Shown here: one piece after another, positions 14,965 to 37,314 of the stretch | Position numbering within the stretch: the first letter of the stretch is position 1 | Layout: every line of letters begins with the position of its first letter | Assembly (NCBI GenBank): GCA_965243065.1 | Contig: CBDETO010000005.1 | Location: 387,323 to 451,322, forward strand | Length of the DNA stretch: 64,000 nucleotides | Reading direction: 5' to 3' | Source: Bdellovibrionales bacterium | GTDB lineage: Bacteria; Bdellovibrionota; Bdellovibrionia; Bdellovibrionales; UBA1609 | The notes under the pieces: model-generated | The model's input: the letters and a program-made list of their open reading frames with translations, nothing else | What the model was told of the DNA's origin: nothing | The model's database searches: none | Translations under genes and position numbers: made by a program

Positions 14965-15194
14965 TGTACGTGTTCACTAATTCGCTGACAGAATCACTTC
15001 TTCAGTAGAGAATAGGAGTCAAAAGGCTCAGACATGCGTTTTGCCACAGAGCAACCTTTGGTTGCTCATGTGTCAAATCCGAACTCGCTTTTGCCCCCTA
15101 TTCTCTCCTGAAGAGCTTATCTCTATCCTGCTTTGTATGTCATCCCTATAGCTAACGGGAAGCCATTTTGTCAGCGAATTAGTGAACACGTACA
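14965..15194. repeat. IS481-derived MITE (230 bp) between bioF and bioD
   Basis: The ends are TGTACGTGTTCACTAATTCGCTGACAG... and ...TTTTGTCAGCGAATTAGTGAACACGTACA. The flanks are GTCATTCC | ... | ...GCGGGAATC. Confidence 0.85.
15000..15115. repeat. PAL palindromic repeat, nested in MITE
   Basis: This is the reference copy: CTTCAGTAGAGAATAGGAGTCAAAAGGCTCAGACATGCGTTTTGCCACAGAGCAACCTTTGGTTGCTC...CCTATTCTCTCCTGAAGAG. Confidence 0.85.
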
Positions 15195-21601: not shown

Positions 21602-23531
21602 CCCGACTTCGACACAACACGATGCAATAAATGAGTAATCTTATATACTTATGATTCTCTGGTGCCACACATTTTTAAGATTATGTTAAGAAATAGGGGT
21701 TATCTGAGAGACTCTTTTAAGATTAAAAGCCTCATATATTTGCTTTATCGGTTCACTGTACTTAGATGGCATACGGTAAAGCTTTTTATGAGCATCCTCT
21801 ATAAGTGAGTATTGATCCCTCTTTAAAACCTCTCTCATCTTCTGTAGGCTGAACTTAAGCCCCCTTTGCTCCATACGATGCTTCATCGTATAGGAAAGGG
21901 AGTAAGCTAAAAAACATATTGCTATATGCGCCTGTATCCTCTTTTTTTTCCAATGATAGACGGGTCTCATTTTAAGGCTGTGTTTGCACACACGAAAAGC
22001 TTCCTCTATCTTCCAAAGTTGTCTGTAACGGGTTAAGAGTGCATGAGCAGACTGATTATCTATGTTGGTTATCACTCCATGAAGACCATCCCACCTGCTG
22101 TCCTCTTCTATCTTTTGCTCATTTAAGCGGGCCTTGGTCCTTTCCACTGTGATGTATTTTTTAGTTCCATAATTACTGATAAGGCTTTTTATAGGTATCC
22201 TATTGTTTTTTACCTTTTTCATAAGACGATCAATGAGCTTTTGTCTGTCACTTTTGCTCTTCTTAGCTCTCCTCTGGGAGTAACTCACTATGAGCCTTCT
22301 TTGTTTATGCTCAAGCTCCTTTACCCATTGAAACTCCTGTGCGACGGAAGCCTCCTGCCTATACTCCTCACTTAATATCTCCTCTCTTTTGGCTTTAGGA
22401 AGAGACTTTATCTTAGCCGCCACCACATACTGAAGACCCTCCTCTTCCATAAGCTTAAGGTTTTGCTCATTAAACATAGCTCTATCCGCCACAATAACAG
22501 CCTTGTTGACGGTAAATCTTTGTTTTAGTTTTTTGATGACGGTAATAAGGGTGTTCCCCTCAGAAGTTCTGCCAGGAAAAAGCTCATAACTTAAAGGATG
22601 ACCCTCTTGATTAGTGACCAAAGCCAATACCACTTGAGTCTGGTTAAACTTCAAATCCTTACTAAAACCAAACTGCCTTATGTCATCTTCATCAAAACTT
22701 TCAAAGTAAAGAGTTGTTACATCAAAAAACAACACATCCACTTCTTGGTTAAAAAGACTTAAAGTGTTCTTGGCCACTAGGTCCTTTACTTTAGCTATGT
22801 TAGGATGAAGACGATCCATCATCCGATACATCTTCTCTAAAGGGACTGTTTCGTTATAATCCTCTCGTAAGGTCTCCACTGTCTTTCTTTTAGAATCAGG
22901 ATGAGCTATACGGGAGAGCACACAGCACTTTAAAATATCATTCCATTGCTCATCTTTTCTAGTACCTTCTATAATGGTATGGAACTTAAGTTGCTCATAC
23001 ACAGCCCCACACACGCCCTTAATGCCATAGTGCACTCTCTCCTTCTCTCTGGGGCTTTTTAGAGAAAAAATAGAAAGAGGCTTCGTTTTTTTCTTCTTCT
23101 TAAGTTTAGACTCAGACTTCTTATTTACATACTCAGGTTCTTTGCTGTAAATGATCTTTTCCATACCTGGTAAAACAGGCTGCCTTTCGTTACTAAGCTT
23201 TACAAGAATCTCCCCAGCGGCCTTCTCTAAAGCTCTTATCCCTTCCTGTGTTTTAGAACTACCTACACAATGCAGAGTTTTTTGAATCACCTTATCTTGG
23301 TGTCGTACGGACTCCATAACACGCACAAAAGAAGAACCATTGGGTTTTTTAGTGACTTTGATGAACATGCTTTTACTGTGTCAGAACAGATAAGAGAAGT
23401 AAATAGGGCCAGTGCCACACAACCTTTATTTTGGGGGTATTTTAACTATCAAAAGTAACCAAAAACACATCTACTCAACCTAAAAACTATCAAAATATTT
23501 TTTTAACCCATAGTGTTGTGTCGAAGTCGGG
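21602..23531 (-). mobile_element. IS1634-family (IS4-like) insertion sequence, ~1.93 kb
   Basis: Terminal inverted repeats are CCCGACTTCGACACAACAC (21602-21620) and GTGTTGTGTCGAAGTCGGG (23513-23531). A perfect 41-bp direct repeat abuts both ends (21561-21601 = 23532-23572). Confidence 0.85.
21686..23368 (-). CDS. IS1634-family DDE transposase
   Basis: 560 aa. The N-terminus MFIKVTKKPNGSSFVRVMESVRHQDKVIQKTL is typical of the IS1634/IS1549 group, and the C-terminal third is DDE-like. Confidence 0.8.
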   Translation of the reverse strand: MFIKVTKKPNGSSFVRVMESVRHQDKVIQKTLHCVGSSKTQEGIRALEKAAGEILVKLSNERQPVLPGMEKIIYSKEPEYVNKKSESKLKKKKKTKPLSIFSLKSPREKERVHYGIKGVCGAVYEQLKFHTIIEGTRKDEQWNDILKCCVLSRIAHPDSKRKTVETLREDYNETVPLEKMYRMMDRLHPNIAKVKDLVAKNTLSLFNQEVDVLFFDVTTLYFESFDEDDIRQFGFSKDLKFNQTQVVLALVTNQEGHPLSYELFPGRTSEGNTLITVIKKLKQRFTVNKAVIVADRAMFNEQNLKLMEEEGLQYVVAAKIKSLPKAKREEILSEEYRQEASVAQEFQWVKELEHKQRRLIVSYSQRRAKKSKSDRQKLIDRLMKKVKNNRIPIKSLISNYGTKKYITVERTKARLNEQKIEEDSRWDGLHGVITNIDNQSAHALLTRYRQLWKIEEAFRVCKHSLKMRPVYHWKKKRIQAHIAICFLAYSLSYTMKHRMEQRGLKFSLQKMREVLKRDQYSLIEDAHKKLYRMPSKYSEPIKQIYEAFNLKRVSQITPIS

Positions 23532-23667: not shown

Positions 23668-24321
23668 ATGAAGATGAGTAAATCCATAATATCACCAGCA
23701 GATGAGATTTGGGCACTTATAAAAGAGACTCAAAGAAATTTAGAGCGGTTTTCGGCAGAAGCAGAGAAGCGGCAAGCAGAAGCAGAGAAGCAAAGGGCAG
23801 AGGAAAAGAAGCAGCAGGCTAAGCGATGGGCTGAAGCAGAGAAACGTAGTGCTGAAATAGATCGGCAGATACAAAAAATAGGGGGCCGTTTTAATGAACG
23901 ATGGGGAGCTTTAGTGGAGTCTTTAGTTGAGGGAAAGCTGGTAAAGATTTTTCAAGGTCATGGGATAGATATAACACAAACTCATACTCGTTCTAAATCA
24001 GAGTGGAGAAAACCGGATGGTCGTATTAAAAGACGGGAGTTTGATATTATTGTGGCTAATGGAACAGAGGTTGTGGTTGTAGAAGTAAAAACCACTTTAG
24101 TTCCTAAAGATGTTACTGTTTTTTTAGAAACACTTAGGGATTTTAGAAATTACTTTCGAAGATATAAGACGGAAATCATCTATGGGGCGGTAGCCTATCT
24201 AGCCAGTGAGAGTAGGGCGCATTTGCTTGCGGAGGAAGAGGGTTTATTTCTTATCCGAGCTACAGGGGACAGTGCCAGCCTGGTTAATAGAAAAGACTTT
24301 AAACCCAAAGCTTTTAGCTGA
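23668..24321 (+). CDS. coiled-coil + PD-(D/E)XK nuclease-fold protein (DUF3782-like), paralogue B
   Basis: 217 aa. The 5' leader, the first 14 codons and the last ~150 codons are nearly identical to 10198-10827. The coiled-coil segment is unrelated in sequence. Confidence 0.5.
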   Translation: MKMSKSIISPADEIWALIKETQRNLERFSAEAEKRQAEAEKQRAEEKKQQAKRWAEAEKRSAEIDRQIQKIGGRFNERWGALVESLVEGKLVKIFQGHGIDITQTHTRSKSEWRKPDGRIKRREFDIIVANGTEVVVVEVKTTLVPKDVTVFLETLRDFRNYFRRYKTEIIYGAVAYLASESRAHLLAEEEGLFLIRATGDSASLVNRKDFKPKAFS

Positions 24322-24423
24322 AGAATCATTTTTCAGTGTGGAGCTGATCTCCATAGATCTGTCATTCCTGTAAAGCTTGAACTTTGTCATTCCCGCGCAA
24401 GCGGGAATCTCATTGCTCTTGCT

Positions 24424-24454
24424 CTTCAGTAGAGAATAGAGAGCAAAAGACTCA
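24424..24454. repeat. PAL repeat, left arm (interrupted by IS110-type element)
   Basis: CTTCAGTAGAGAATAGAGAGCAAAAGACTCA, then unrelated IS sequence. Confidence 0.8.
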
Positions 24455-24856
24455 CCTATGGAAAAAGTAATGTCAAGAGTATAGTATCCCATTCGCAAAC
24501 AAAACATCTTCTTGCGTTACGGTCTCCTGAAGGAAGGGCATAACACCTTATCAATACCACTCATCAATCAATCACTCGCTCACCTTACTTTATTGTCTCA
24601 AAAAAATGAATCAGTATCTTCACATTCACCTATCCAAACTCTTACTGTATAACAGCAGGTTATAATAAATTTGGAAAAATAGAGCAGAGGCTAATCAAAC
24701 ATTAGACTGTAACTATGTTACCTCTGTTTTTATGGTAATCATAGTCCGTCACTGAGCCTTAAGCTTTCTTCTGCTCATTTCCAGGAGAGCTTTCTTACTC
24801 TTTAGCTTCTTTGATAAAGTATAAAAAAACTTTATATACCCAACCTGAAAATCTGA
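24455..24856 (-). ncRNA. candidate IS110-family guide (bridge/seek) RNA region; hypothesis only
   Basis: This is 402 nt of non-coding DNA 3' of the transposase inside the IS, which is the IS1111-like layout. It contains CTGAGCCTT (24752-24760), the reverse complement of the PAL consensus AAGGCTCAG that abuts the insertion point. No structure was computed. Confidence 0.25.
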
Positions 24857-25864
24857 TTACTTTTTGTTTTTCTCTCTCAACTCCTTCTCCCTTCTATTAG
24901 GATCATATTTTTTACCACTTTTTAATACTCCGTAAACTAAAATAGCTAACTTCCTACTGACATTATGTTTTGCCATTAAGGCTGGTTTTTTCTCTATATA
25001 ATACTCATAAAGACCTTTTAAAGAATTATTACATCTATTCTGTGTTACACTATGAGAGGCCATTTTAAATATCTGTTTAAGTGGACGATAACACCTAGAA
25101 AATTTCCTTCCATAACTTCTTCCCCCACTTATCTTCTCATGCTTGATTAAACCACAGTAACTTAAAAAATGTCCCTTGCTTGGGAAACGACCTATATCCA
25201 CTACAGCAGCCATGATCTGCACTGCATGAATGTCACTGATCCCTGGAATACTCTTTAATAACCTCATCTCTTTGTGTTTCATCGAAAGCTTTTTAAACTC
25301 CTTAATATACTCCCCCTTCACCTTCTCATGTAGAGCCAGTAACTGCTTTGAACGAAATAATACAAAATCATCACAAGCAGGAACTGGAGAAAACTCATCT
25401 TTCTTATGATCTAAACCCACAGAAGCAAAAACAGCACTCCTCTGGTTCTTTAAACGAACTATACTTTTTACAACATCATTGTAGCCACTAACCAGTTTCC
25501 TTAAATATATAAAATCTTTCCCACTATGATATACTTCCTTCAATAATCCCGCCTGACTTAAACGCACTAACTTTGTAGCATCTATCTTGTCATTTTTGGC
25601 CCCCTCGGACAGAAGCCTATTACGATAAGGGTCACATACTAAAAGCTTGTTGACGCAATATCTCAACTCTGAGTAAAGCCATTGGGAAGAAGTACTCTCT
25701 TCAAAAGTGAGGATTTTCTTTCCTTTCAGACTTTTTAGATAGTCTTTTAGATAAGAAATATTGCTGGGAATATCTTCTACATTCACTTTTTTACCTTTTT
25801 TTGTTACTCTGGCTATGGCCATATTGTTCTTTGACCAATCTAAAGCTATATAATGTTCATACAT
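24857..25864 (-). CDS. IS110-family (DEDD) transposase
   Basis: 335 aa. The N-terminal YIALDWSKNNMAIA is DEDD_Tnp-like. The C-terminal IPGISDIHAVQIMAAVVDIGRFPSKGHFLSYCGL is the Transposase_20 motif. Confidence 0.85.
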   Translation of the reverse strand: MYEHYIALDWSKNNMAIARVTKKGKKVNVEDIPSNISYLKDYLKSLKGKKILTFEESTSSQWLYSELRYCVNKLLVCDPYRNRLLSEGAKNDKIDATKLVRLSQAGLLKEVYHSGKDFIYLRKLVSGYNDVVKSIVRLKNQRSAVFASVGLDHKKDEFSPVPACDDFVLFRSKQLLALHEKVKGEYIKEFKKLSMKHKEMRLLKSIPGISDIHAVQIMAAVVDIGRFPSKGHFLSYCGLIKHEKISGGRSYGRKFSRCYRPLKQIFKMASHSVTQNRCNNSLKGLYEYYIEKKPALMAKHNVSRKLAILVYGVLKSGKKYDPNRREKELREKNKK

Positions 25865-25960
25865 AGGGTCTCCTCCTTTTTTAATATATTTTATATATTT
25901 ATTGACCTTCCTACTTTACATGCAGGAAAGAGTCTTGAGGAGACCTTCTTTTTCCATTTA

Positions 25961-26069
25961 TCAAACATGCGGTTTGCCACAGAGCAACCTTTGGTTGCTC
26001 TATGTCAAGCTTGTCCCCGCGAAAGCGGGGATCCGAACTCGCTTTTGCCCCCTATTCTCTCCTGAAGAG
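25961..26069. repeat. PAL repeat, right arm, with a nested CTTGTCCCCGCGAAAGCGGGGAT mini-hairpin
   Basis: TCAAACATGCGGTTTGCCACAGAGCAACCTTTGGTTGCTC...CCTATTCTCTCCTGAAGAG. Confidence 0.8.
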
Positions 26070-26148
26070 TCTATCTCTATCCTGCTTTGTATGTCATCCC
26101 CATAGCTAACGGGAAGCCATTTTGTCAGCGAATTTGTGAACATTTACA
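26070..26148. repeat. MITE right-end segment abutting the IS481-type element
   Basis: ...ATCTCTATCCTGCTTTGTATGTCATCCCCATAGCTAACGGGAAGCCATTTTGTCAGCGAATTTGTGAACATTTACA. Confidence 0.75.
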
Positions 26149-26171
26149 ATTCCCGCAAAGTATGTCATTCC

Positions 26172-27283
26172 TGTAAATGTTCACAAATTCGCTGACAAAA
26201 TTGAGTTTATAAGGGAGCGTTAGAAAGCTCTAAATAACCCAAGATAAGGAGGCGAGTTATGAGGGATAACACACAAGATAAGACCCTATACAGGAACTAT
26301 ATTAGTAAGTGGCAGTATATGATAAAAGACTATGAGTTAGTAAAGAGGAAGAAACATCCAAAGTTTCGATTTGTAAGTGATTTTTACAAATTCCATAAAA
26401 CTAATCGTCAGACTTTTTTAAAATACTATCATCGCTATTTAAGTCATCCTACAGAGGGGAGTCTTGTTCCTCGTAAGAGAGGTCCTAGATGGAGGTTAAG
26501 AAGGGGGGATAATAATAGCTATATTGAGCAGGAGGTGCTAAAACACAGGGAAAATGGTGTTAATAGATACGAGATGTGTCATATACTAAACCCTCTTCTT
26601 AAGCAAAGGGGAGAGGTTCCGATATCGGCTAGTACGGTATATCGTATATTCAGGAGGAAGGGGGTAAATAAGTTGAAGCCGAAGATGATAGAGAATAAGC
26701 GCAAGATAATAAAGGAGAAGGCGGGGGAGTTAGGTCACATAGACTGCCATCATTTGGGTAAGGACATGATAGTGAAGTCAGGGGGTAAGAGGTACTATTT
26801 GGTGTGTGTTATAGATGATTGCACGAGGATAGCTTGGGCTGAAGTGGTGGAGGATATAAAGAGTCTTACGGTGATGTTTTCGTGTTTAAAGATTTTTAAT
26901 GTATTGAGCAAGAAGTATAAGATGGAGTTTAAGGAGGTTATGAGTGATAATGGTTCAGAGTTTTCTTCTCGTAATAATCAGTTATCGCATCCGTTTGAGA
27001 GGATGTTGTTGGAGTTGGGGGTAAGGCATAGATATACAAGGCCGTATAGGCCACAGACGAATGGGAAGGTGGAGAGATTTTGGAGGAGTTTAAATGAGGA
27101 TTTAATAGAGGGGAGTGTATTTGAGACGATAGAGGAGTTCAAGGATGAATTGGAGCAGTATTTGATATACTATAATGAGTTTAGACCTCATCAGGGTTTG
27201 AATCAGAAAACACCTCGGCAAATGAATAACTCTTGTGAAAGAGTGAAGAAGTGATTTTGTCAGCGAATTAGTGAACACGTACA
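26172..27283 (+). mobile_element. IS481-family insertion sequence (~1.1 kb), likely master copy of the local MITEs
   Basis: The 29-bp IRs are TGTAAATGTTCACAAATTCGCTGACAAAA (26172-26200) and TTTTGTCAGCGAATTAGTGAACACGTACA (27255-27283). The flanks read GTCATTCC | IS | ATTCCCGCGGAAGCGGGAATCC, which suggests an ATTCC duplication within a hairpin repeat. Confidence 0.85.
26259..27254 (+). CDS. IS481-family transposase (rve integrase core)
   Basis: 331 aa with GHIDCHHLG, VIDDCTR, SDNGSEF and RPYRPQTNGKVERFWRSL (DDE triad context). Confidence 0.9.
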   Translation: MRDNTQDKTLYRNYISKWQYMIKDYELVKRKKHPKFRFVSDFYKFHKTNRQTFLKYYHRYLSHPTEGSLVPRKRGPRWRLRRGDNNSYIEQEVLKHRENGVNRYEMCHILNPLLKQRGEVPISASTVYRIFRRKGVNKLKPKMIENKRKIIKEKAGELGHIDCHHLGKDMIVKSGGKRYYLVCVIDDCTRIAWAEVVEDIKSLTVMFSCLKIFNVLSKKYKMEFKEVMSDNGSEFSSRNNQLSHPFERMLLELGVRHRYTRPYRPQTNGKVERFWRSLNEDLIEGSVFETIEEFKDELEQYLIYYNEFRPHQGLNQKTPRQMNNSCERVKK

Positions 27284-37202: not shown

Positions 37203-37314
37203 TTCATAAGAGAATAGGAGTCAAAAGGCTCAGACATGCGTTTTGCCACAGAGCAACCTTTGGTTGCTCGTGTGTCAAATCCGAACTCGCTTTTTCCTCC
37301 TATTCTCTTATGAA
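37203..37314. repeat. PAL palindromic repeat upstream of erpA
   Basis: TTCATAAGAGAATAGGAGTCAAAAGGCTCAGACATGCGTTTTGCCACAGAGCAACCTTTGGTTGCTC...CCTATTCTCTTATGAA. Confidence 0.85.

Follow-up and report, generated by a model that had tools for sequence, protein, structure and literature searches.

In this study, we analyzed a stretch of 64,000 nucleotides of genomic DNA (the window) and found one copy of a complete insertion sequence (IS) on the minus strand at positions 24455-25963. The IS is 1509 bp long and sits at one exact position inside a ~117-bp palindromic repeat (PAL). The best explanation is an RNA-guided element of the IS110 superfamily, in which an RNA of ~190 nt encoded by the element guides the recombinase. 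Taken jointly with the view that the IS is intact, recently active and of IS1111-type layout, we hold this explanation with high confidence. The mechanism is already known, and the lineage is distant and undescribed.

The limits of the IS were set by comparison with intact PAL copies and with five further copies of the element, each exactly 1509 bp long if the TG core is assigned a single time, to the left end. In gene orientation, the IS starts with TGATAAATGG and ends with CCATAGG. As originally read, the left PAL arm stops at ...AAAAGACTCA (24454) and the right arm resumes with TCAAACATGCGG (25961); the letters agree with both readings. Only TG(A) was common to the two junctions, and the insertion occurred without duplication beyond this short core. 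The original prediction had also noted TCA at both junctions as a possible core. TCA is present at both, but comparison of relatives reduced the core to two bases, TG when read along the gene (CA on the plus strand). The third base belongs to the IS left end, where it is invariant, and the target happens to have it as well. A 3-nt core TGA was dropped, since the left ends of relatives always begin with TGA and their right flanks begin with TG, CG, GG or TA.

The element had been described as lacking terminal inverted repeats, which was wrong in spirit. A perfect 10-bp subterminal inverted repeat is formed by ATGGAAAAAG on the left (25948-25957, minus strand, present in all relatives) and CTTTTTCCAT on the right (24458-24467, minus strand, conserved in relatives), both given in gene orientation, and lies 6 nt and 3 nt away from the two ends. 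Outside it are the 6-nt left extension TGATAA (25958-25963), whose first two bases are the TG core, and the 3-nt right extension AGG (24455-24457). In the IS1111 family, the subterminal repeats characteristically measure 7-17 bp, usually 11-13 bp, and the extensions are 7 or 6 nt long at the left end and 3 nt long at the right end (PMC11187229, PMC11208160), a pattern that the present repeat and its extensions follow. The asymmetry reported earlier for the non-coding arms was borne out, with 402 nt on the 3' side of the gene and 96-99 nt on the 5' side.

The recombinase (transposase) gene lies at 24857-25864 on the minus strand and encodes 335 aa, with a DEDD RuvC-like domain and a Tnp domain carrying a catalytic Ser. 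Its proposed membership of the IS110 family was confirmed by two Pfam domains, PF01548 (41.0 bits, cut-off 29) and PF02371 (56.5 bits, cut-off 21.3). The NCBIfam equivalog NF033542 matched over the full length with 128.9 bits, under its 140-bit cut-off, which indicates a divergent member of the IS110 superfamily. Residues D9, E55/E56, D92, D95, G247 and G248 were invariant among 15 homologues, and S246, which aligns with S241 of IS621, was nearly invariant (at least 90%). The DEDD residues were assigned by position and conservation, as the alignment to solved IS621-type structures was significant for the C-terminal domain only (E 4e-6) and did not cover the N-terminal domain. The SG motif G--P----SG reads GLIKHEKISG in this protein, with K replacing P.

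The protein was compared directly with ISLin1, ISEc11, a Klebsiella IS110-family protein and a C-terminal piece of IS621. ISLin1 was the best of these four references, with a full-length match of 48 bits by single sequence and 80 bits by clade profile at ~22% identity. The IS621 piece gave 30-38 bits, and ISEc11 gave 20-35 bits in the C-terminal half only. Proteins from a plasmid collection never exceeded 26.4% identity. On placement in the IS1111 clade, neither pairwise nor profile scores against the four references discriminate. By transposase sequence the element is not demonstrably a member of IS1111, ISEc11 being no closer than IS621. The earlier label "IS1111-type" holds for the architecture; the transposase sequence does not show it.

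A covariance model and folding placed a candidate bridge/seek RNA of ~190 nt in the 402-nt arm, 3' of the recombinase stop codon (minus strand, 24789→24599). The predicted architecture consists of an outer stem P0, stems P1-P3 around a target-binding loop, stem P4 around a donor-binding loop, and a terminal hairpin P5, after which come seven consecutive U. The covariance model R1 had a single match in the window (155.6 bits, E 7e-32), and the model also detected the RNA, again 3' of the gene, in relatives absent from the seed alignment. Among 20 distinct sequences, 33 of the 36 base pairs showed compensatory change on both sides, including all 9 pairs of P4. Paired cells made up 87.8% in the same set, compared with 37-47% in slid controls, and the covariation score was 0.551, compared with 0.09-0.16 when partners were slid; the structural alignment behind these pair counts was fitted to our own model and favors it. 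Folding of the 3' arm as a single sequence, which had been proposed earlier as a check, gave the same stems as the conserved scaffold, with an unexceptional energy (z = -1.6). A conserved stem-loop with loops matching target and donor, sought in the same connection, is present.

MAFFT alignments lost the register of stems P2 and P3 because the guides differ in length, and the covariance model was therefore built and the sequences re-aligned with it. With six sequences as input, RNAalifold formed a pairing between the two donor guides (AUUUAU with AUAGGU); we took this as an artefact of invariant columns and left the positions as loop. Rfam gave no match at gathering thresholds in the whole window and nothing relevant at E <= 10 in 24300-26200, so that the RNA has no independent curated model. 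The permissive Rfam matches were chance miRNA-like hits on the neighboring hairpin repeat. A promoter scan of the minus strand found no consensus promoter directly upstream of the RNA, and in a terminator scan the P5 hairpin and U-run were too weak to be called.

The target-binding loop carries two guides. The top-strand guide AAGGCUCAG (24752-24760, minus strand), on the 5' side of the loop, pairs with C-TG-AGCCTT, that is, the core and right flank. A 9-mer at these positions had been claimed to match PAL at the insertion point, and we confirmed that CTGAGCCTT is the exact reverse complement of AAGGCTCAG. Pairing of the right target flank with the guide AAGGCUCA for the top strand involves a single G·T wobble, which falls on the T of GTC. 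The bottom-strand guide AUGUU-UG-A (24695-24702, minus strand) is on the 3' side of the loop and equals the left flank plus core, the last 5 nt of the left target flank being ATGTT. The A(U) after its core matches positions 3-4 of the IS left end in a handshake-like manner. AAGGCUCAG occupies RNA positions 97-105 and AUGUUUGA positions 155-162, so the match to the top strand comes 5' of the one to the bottom strand, as in IS1111 seekRNAs (PMC11187229).

The donor-binding loop reads across the joined ends of the IS. The 5' donor guide AUUUAUUA (24663-24670, minus strand) pairs with the left end TGATAAAT through one G·U wobble. In distant relatives this guide is AUUUAUCA, a perfect complement of TGATAAAT, yet their own left ends start with CGATAAA. 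The 3' donor guide AUAGG-UG-AA (24625-24633, minus strand) is made up of the right end's final 5 nt, then the core and then 2 more nt, and these last two tend to match target positions +3 and +4. Guide lengths are 9 + 8 nt for the target and 8 + 8 nt for the donor junction, in top-then-bottom order in both loops. The two guides overlap at the core as they do in IS621 (PMC11208160), and handshake guides have been described for that element (PMC11208158). The bottom-strand target guide and the donor-binding loop had been missed in the original prediction.

The 9-mer AAGGCUCAG was identical in all six IS copies, and relatives carry the complement of their own right flank at this place, which answers the question raised earlier of whether it is conserved. 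The 9-mer match is marginal when taken alone; it is decisive together with the six identical positions, the second guide, the donor guides and co-variation. The earlier proposal of a candidate guide RNA is supported in that the loops fit target and donor and co-vary with the flanks in relatives, all of this evidence being computational.

Donor guides are nearly invariant within the close clade and show little co-variation there, and the 5' donor guide requires its G·U wobble. Both observations are compatible with an element guided by the target loop (a short seekRNA) alone, in which the protein reads the subterminal repeats and the donor loop is scaffold. In ISEc11, an 82-nt short seekRNA with the target matches was enough for movement and moved the element even better than the long form (PMC11187229), and so a donor loop may not be essential. 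However, when clades are compared, changes in the 3' donor guide go along with changes in the right end and core, the combinations ATAGG+TG, ATAGG+CG, ATAGA+CG and ATAAA+CG each being matched. The two bases after the core of this guide track the target, and P4 is compensatory throughout. Handshake-like positions matched in 18 of 26 cases, compared with 8 expected, and only 2 of 50,000 permutations were as good. We consider guidance by the target loop alone unlikely and favor an RNA that reads both target and donor.

We next describe the repeat in which the IS lies. The window contains 6 full-length uninterrupted PAL copies and ~7 partial ones, in agreement with the 12 or more further copies claimed before, and the PAL junction 14-mer had 9 matches in the window against 1.4 expected. 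Intact copies at 15000-15116 and 37203-37314 read ...AAAAGGCTCAGACATGCG..., and GCATGTCTGAGCCTTTT is a PAL target. The target position is an asymmetric unpaired internal loop of the PAL hairpin. In the interrupted copy, the left arm (24424-24454, plus strand) is the right target flank in gene orientation, TG-AGTCTTTTGCTC..., and the right arm (25964-26069, plus strand) is the left target flank, ...CGCATGTT. A small nested palindrome lies within the right arm at 26014-26031.

Exact-protein look-ups with the window protein, P0001, P0002 and P0038 returned no record. The five further IS copies, on metagenome contigs, were traced via P0121, a member of the near-identical protein cluster. These copies were 99.7-100% identical and were all inserted at the same PAL position. 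All five follow GGCTCA on the plus strand, the position at which the original prediction expected other copies to lie. The PAL flanks of the six copies were 55-97% identical. This difference in identity between flanks and IS indicates that most of the six copies are separate insertions.

Given these copies, it is quite unlikely that the window copy is a silent relic, structurally intact and no longer moving in its genome. Such a relic would fit the finding of just one copy in the 64-kb window, where at least 8 empty PAL sites are compatible with the guides, some of them fully (for example, 15021-15037 and 37223-37239). It would also fit a ribosome-binding site locked in a strong hairpin. Nevertheless, the reading frame is intact, as are the ends, the guides and the catalytic residues, copies at different sites are 99.7-100% identical, and a second near-identical protein variant is on record on 10 contigs.

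The six sites would not be independent if PAL and IS spread together as one composite unit, through PAL mobilisation or PAL-PAL recombination. Five of the 6 occupied PALs have T at position -1 together with a nested palindrome not seen in the two intact copies (15000-15116, 37203-37314). Between the window copy and L025, the flanks are 93-97% alike, and these two could be one locus in two strains. In contrast, the flanks as a whole are far more diverged than the IS. L023 has no nested palindrome and has C at -1, and in L024 and L027 the far PAL arm is a different variant. The guide U pairs better with the T variant at -1, which explains the preference for T without co-mobilisation. Spread as a composite is very improbable, and separate RNA-guided insertions remain our reading of most of these sites.

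The scaffold and its guides were then compared across relatives with 42-83% protein identity. The scaffold is conserved in ~13 related elements that use other targets, with guides that shift along with the flanks. Complementarity at the top-strand guide position averaged 7 nt for cognate flanks, compared with 1.9 nt for non-cognate flanks. In permutation tests of each target guide, 0 of 20,000 permutations reached the observed match. At the bottom-strand guide position, relatives have their own left flank followed by (U/C)G, and the left-flank match was poor in relatives L005, L007, L036 and L037. The insertion sites of relatives include unrelated sequences other than PAL, and there too the loops track the flanks. 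In one type of relative, the donor core is TG but the target core is CG. L029 and L035 contain TGCGTGATT as a direct repeat.

It is extremely improbable that the recombinase reads the PAL hairpin by protein-DNA contacts alone (the pre-2024 view of REP-targeting elements) and that the 3'-arm matches are incidental: the target is a strongly folding palindrome (z = -6.9) and one 9-mer in 402 nt is marginally unlikely by chance (~0.05-0.1, estimated over every register, both strands and a ~30-nt target), but four separate matches lie within the loops of a conserved scaffold, and these loops change with the flanks in ~13 target types, non-PAL sites included.

By analogy with IS621 and ISEc11, guidance by both loops would operate as follows. 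The 335-aa DEDD/Ser recombinase would bind the ~190-nt RNA encoded just downstream of its gene (24789→24599). In the target loop, AAGGCUCAG would pair with the top strand across the core and right flank, and AUGUU-UG with the bottom strand over left flank plus core. In the donor loop, AUUUAUUA and AUAGG-UG would bind the junction of the two ends in the excised circle, ...CCATAGG|TGATAAATGG..., or in longer form ...TTTTTCCATAGG-TGATAAATGGAAAAAG.... Strand exchange at the TG core would then put the IS between ...CGCATGT(T/C) and TGAG(C/T)C..., always in one orientation. The two nucleotides past the core in each 3' guide are apparent "handshake" positions that match the partner DNA and may act as they do in IS621. 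In the circle, the -35 TTGACA would come to lie beside a -10-like ATAAAT, and this promoter probably drives the gene together with the downstream RNA.

A perfect -35 hexamer TTGACA can be read in the right end at 24471-24476 (minus strand). Joining of the IS ends would place it 17-18 nt upstream of GATAAA/ATAAAT of the left end. A TTGACA-like hexamer, within CTTGACA or CTTGCAT, occurs in most relatives. The joined ends would therefore form a junction promoter comparable to Pjunc of ISEc11 (PMC11187229).

The 5' UTR contains a hairpin at 25867-25945 (minus strand), in which GGUCUCCUC (25937-25945) pairs with GAGGAGACC (25867-25875) over the Shine-Dalgarno sequence. Its folding energy was -29.8 kcal/mol (z = -4.74), and none of 200 shuffled sequences folded as well. 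A 12-nt inverted repeat between 24521-24532 and 25934-25945 had been proposed previously. The pairing exists, at 11 of 12 positions, but it belongs to a GGUCUCC/GGAGACC motif that is present in three copies, one pairing of which folds over the ribosome-binding site. The third copy, CUUCAGGAGACC (24521-24532, minus strand), lies in the 3' arm, is conserved, and co-varies with the other two in relatives.

The layout resembles that of the IS1111-family elements with seekRNAs, ISEc11, ISPa11 and ISKpn4 (Siddiquee et al. 2024, PMC11187229). Shared features are the long non-coding arm downstream of the gene, the 6/3-nt extensions, a protein of 330-350 aa, and the order of the guides and their overlap at the insertion point. 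The putative junction promoter from the two ends would be a further likeness. ISPa11 also targets a REP-like palindrome, and ISEc11 and ISXne4 are close relatives that have been naturally reprogrammed, as is seen here (PMC11187229). Unlike in that family, the repeat has 10 bp in place of the usual 11-13 bp, and K replaces P in the SG motif; the protein is also very distant, and the RNA and its binding by the protein are predictions here.

IS621 and ISCro4 (Durrant et al. 2024, PMC11208160; Hiraizumi et al. 2024, PMC11208158) likewise have a bispecific RNA with target and donor loops, in each loop one guide that reads the bottom strand to the left of the core and one that reads the top strand to its right, a 2-nt core within both guides, 2-nt positions after the core that act as handshakes there and appear to do so here, a DEDD + Ser site and a REP-like target. 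They differ in that the RNA is encoded at the 5' left end there and 3' of the gene here, and the guide order within the loops is reversed. The core is CT there and TG here (CG in distant relatives), and long subterminal inverted repeats are found here. At the protein level, the likeness at ~22% identity is to ISLin1 of Leptospira, annotated as an "IS110-like element ISLin1 family transposase". ISPpu9 and ISPpu10 of Pseudomonas (PMC12288879), set side by side from their description, also insert at a constant site of repetitive extragenic palindromes, and a small RNA gene lies downstream of their transposase, whereas host, repeat family and protein lineage differ.

The relatives come from sponge-associated and other uncultured bacteria. 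It is possible, though we put it forward only tentatively, that their clade is a separate deep lineage of the IS110 superfamily, outside the canonical IS1111 and IS110 clades by protein and with an IS1111 layout. Such a lineage would be marked by a bridge-RNA scaffold of its own, by a TG/CG core with 2-nt handshakes in both loops, and by a three-copy GGUCUCC/GGAGACC switch that possibly couples translation to the state of the element. It would then represent a compact (335 aa + ~190 nt), naturally much-reprogrammed and uncharacterised recombinase system.

RNA-guided recombinases of the IS110/IS1111 type are under development as programmable tools for DNA insertion, excision and inversion. The locus leaves the concept unchanged and adds a natural example, dissected in full, from an uncultured lineage that is distant. 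The ~13 target types on one scaffold fix which RNA positions read which DNA positions, including the handshake-like positions, which so far have been structurally described for IS621 only. The locus also explains the presence of an IS inside a PAL arm in this repeat-rich genome, in which the empty PAL copies are potential landing sites.

The insertion was delimited by comparing the interrupted PAL copy (24424-26069) with the intact copies of this palindromic repeat at 15000-15116 and 37203-37314. The inserted DNA spans 24455-25963. The window has a single copy of the element; of PAL it has six uninterrupted full-length copies and some seven partial ones, and the junction 14-mer was found nine times against 1.4 expected. 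The sole long reading frame of the locus (24857-25864, minus strand) encodes a recombinase of 335 aa. Both IS110-family domains exceeded their Pfam cut-offs (PF01548, 41 bits; PF02371, 56.5 bits), and the NCBIfam IS110 model matched over its full length with 128.9 bits, slightly below the 140-bit cut-off. Residues 121-299 (24968-25504, minus strand) also matched NF052498, the "TIGR-Tas system RNA-guided endonuclease" model, with an E-value of 1.8e-10 and 41 bits, far under its 100-bit cut-off. Mobile elements crowd the neighbourhood: a 560-aa DDE_Tnp_1 transposase gene (21686-23368, minus strand) and a 331-aa rve-type integrase/transposase gene (26259-27254, plus strand) lie one on each side, at most 2 kb away.

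Four short matches, two to the target and two to the donor, lie in the 402-nt 3' arm (read in gene orientation), all on the minus strand. The top-strand target guide AAGGCTCAG (24760→24752) complements C-TG-AGCCTT, and the bottom-strand target guide ATGTTTGA (24702→24695) equals the left flank plus TGA, so that the RNA would pair with the bottom strand. The top-strand donor guide ATTTATTA (24670→24663) is complementary to TGATAAAT, the left end, apart from a single G·U wobble. The bottom-strand donor guide ATAGGTGA (24633→24626) consists of the right end's final five bases plus TGA, which is the sequence expected of the joined element ends. In each pair the top-strand guide comes first, as in IS1111 seekRNAs (PMC11187229), and it overlaps its bottom-strand partner at the core, as do the guides of the IS621 bridge RNA at the core dinucleotide (PMC11208160).

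We then collected related elements with 42-83% protein identity, from which the ends and flanks of elements with other targets could be defined; one relative is present five times (L030-L034) on a circular contig of 1.70 Mb. In the 3' arms of these relatives the scaffold was retained nearly base for base, and the loop segments varied with the element's own flanks. The top-strand guide was ATGCCTGCG for the right flank CGCAGGCAT in the L030 type, AGTCATTACG for CGTAATGACT in L009 and GGAGCATA for TATGCTCC in L037. The bottom-strand guide was GATTTT+TG in L028, where the left flank ends in GATTTT, and CATGTC+TG in L006, where it ends in CATGTC. Guide-flank agreement was assessed with one element per target type and 20,000 permutations per guide. 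Cognate pairs averaged 7 nt for the top-strand guide compared to 1.9 nt for non-cognate pairs, and 4.3 of 7 positions compared to 2.1 of 7 for the bottom-strand guide; for neither guide did any permutation reach the observed sum. The left-flank match was poor in four relatives. The target of L030-L034 (73% identical) is a different REP-like palindrome, TGCCTGC-nnn-CGCAGGCATGAC. The L029 and L035 elements are each bracketed by a direct repeat of 9-10 bp, TGCGTGATT(T) (L029, about 1388-1400 and 2917-2926; L035, about 1093-1105 and 2596-2606), which is unexpected since the IS110 family makes no target duplication. The target may have been a tandem one, or the exchange may have followed another geometry.

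The original prediction proposed TCA, TGA in gene orientation, as a possible core. The left end begins with TGATAAA in all close relatives and CGATAAA in distant ones, and both 3' guides carry UG where the left end has TG and CG where it has CG. The right flank always begins with CG in the distant clade, and with TG in six of the nine element types of the close clade; L030-L034 have the donor core TG, yet their right flank begins with CG in all five copies. The left-end, guide and right-flank starts of the two clades indicate that the shared core is a dinucleotide: the TG within the proposed trinucleotide holds as the core, whereas the A is fixed in the left end and happens to occur in this target. 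The two post-core bases of the 3' donor guide matched target positions +3/+4 in 18 of 26 cases, against about 8 expected, and only 2 of 50,000 permutations reached 18. Those of the 3' target guide (AU) match left-end positions 3-4. By analogy, such post-core bases may resemble the handshake guides of IS621 (PMC11208158).

A covariance model was built from 13 sequences and the proposed stems. Its single match in the window was 24599-24789 on the minus strand (155.6 bits), and it located a homologous RNA downstream of the gene in all relatives with sufficient sequence, including eight non-seed loci. In the model alignment of 20 distinct sequences, which was fitted to the model and is hence biased in its favour, 87.8% of cells were paired compared to 37-47% with partners slid by 1-3 columns, both sides had changed in 33 of 36 pairs, and the covariation score was 0.551 compared to 0.09-0.16 in the slid controls. 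Compensatory changes had also been seen earlier in a plain MAFFT alignment. Folded alone, the window RNA formed the stems of the model with an unremarkable energy (z = -1.6). A further motif, T(A/G)ATCAGATTTTCA(G/A)G (24841-24859, minus strand), starts at the stop codon and is conserved at the DNA level, also in L005, L006 and L028-L030, although the relatives are otherwise unconstrained in the adjoining non-coding sequence. The motif may mark a processing site, or belong to the 5' portion of a longer RNA precursor.

The exact recombinase protein was listed in a public collection of proteins, from an NCBI contig of 2,076,434 bp, and P0121, a member of the near-identical cluster, led to five metagenome contigs (L023-L027) with sample labels that we take to resemble those of sponge-microbiome studies. 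In each contig the element is exactly 1509 bp and has the same PAL position and orientation as the window copy; in gene orientation ...CGCATGT(T/C) precedes it and TGAG(T/C)(C/T)TTTT... follows. The six elements are 99.7-100% mutually identical, whereas their 100-nt and 60-nt flanks are merely 55-97% identical. These results indicate that most copies are separate insertions into already diverged PAL copies; the window copy and that of L025 may represent a single locus in two strains.

The base immediately left of the core (-1; 25964) was T in five of six occupied PALs and C in nine of ten empty window sites; at this position the bottom-strand target guide has U, which would give Watson-Crick pairing in the T variant and wobble pairing in the C variant. 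At least eight empty PAL sites in the window are still compatible with both target guides, and those at 15021-15037 and 37223-37239 give 16 Watson-Crick pairs and one wobble. Single-stranded PAL DNA forms a long hairpin (z = -6.9) whose asymmetric internal loop contains the target, in keeping with all insertions having one orientation. A GC-rich small palindrome, tccccgcgaaagcgggga, is nested in the right arm (26014-26031); it occurs in five of six occupied PALs, and the intact copies starting at 15000 and 37203 lack it. Another, attcccgcgcaagcgggaat, lies immediately outside the left arm (24389-24408).

An inverted repeat of 10 bp, without mismatches, is set back 6 nt from the left and 3 nt from the right end of the element, an arrangement that defines IS1111-type elements (PMC11187229). 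The 12-nt subterminal repeat of the original prediction proved to be something else, a 3'-arm motif copy paired with a 5' UTR copy (11 of 12 positions complementary). This motif has three copies on the minus strand: GGUCUCCUC (25937-25945), GAGGAGACC (25867-25875) and the 3'-arm copy (24521-24532), a second GGAGACC. In the 5' UTR fold, the first two of these form a stem that covers the Shine-Dalgarno ribosome-binding site (z = -4.7). All three copies co-vary in relatives (GGCCTCC/GGAGGCC in L008, GACCTCC/GGAGGTC in L013), and they may act as a translation gate tied to read-through or junction state. The right end contains a perfect TTGACA (24471-24476), which would stand 17-18 nt from the left-end GATAAA/ATAAAT once the ends are joined; most relatives keep this -35-like motif as TTGACA or TTGCAT. 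A promoter scan detected no other promoter for the guide RNA, which is therefore probably made from the transcript of the recombinase gene, as proposed for ISEc11 (PMC11187229).

Judged from sequence, the mechanism would be that of the bridge/seek RNA recombinases, with an IS1111-type layout. The protein itself is remote in sequence from characterised members: identity to plasmid-borne IS110-family genes was at most 26.4%, and scores were 20-35 bits for ISEc11, confined to the C-terminal half, 30-38 bits for the IS621 C-terminal piece and 48-80 bits for ISLin1. Against the solved structures of IS621 and ISCro4, the C-terminal domain alone aligned (E 4e-6 and 2e-5). We therefore class the element as a divergent addition to a known group; it is IS1111-type by layout, and its recombinase scores do not place it in the IS1111 clade.

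A long hairpin repeat, ttttgtcagcgaatttgtgaacatttaca..., adjoins PAL copies at 26115-26200 and about 15130-15180. Its miRNA-family matches in Rfam (E 6e-5) were chance ones, far under gathering scores, and it is probably a second palindromic-repeat family.
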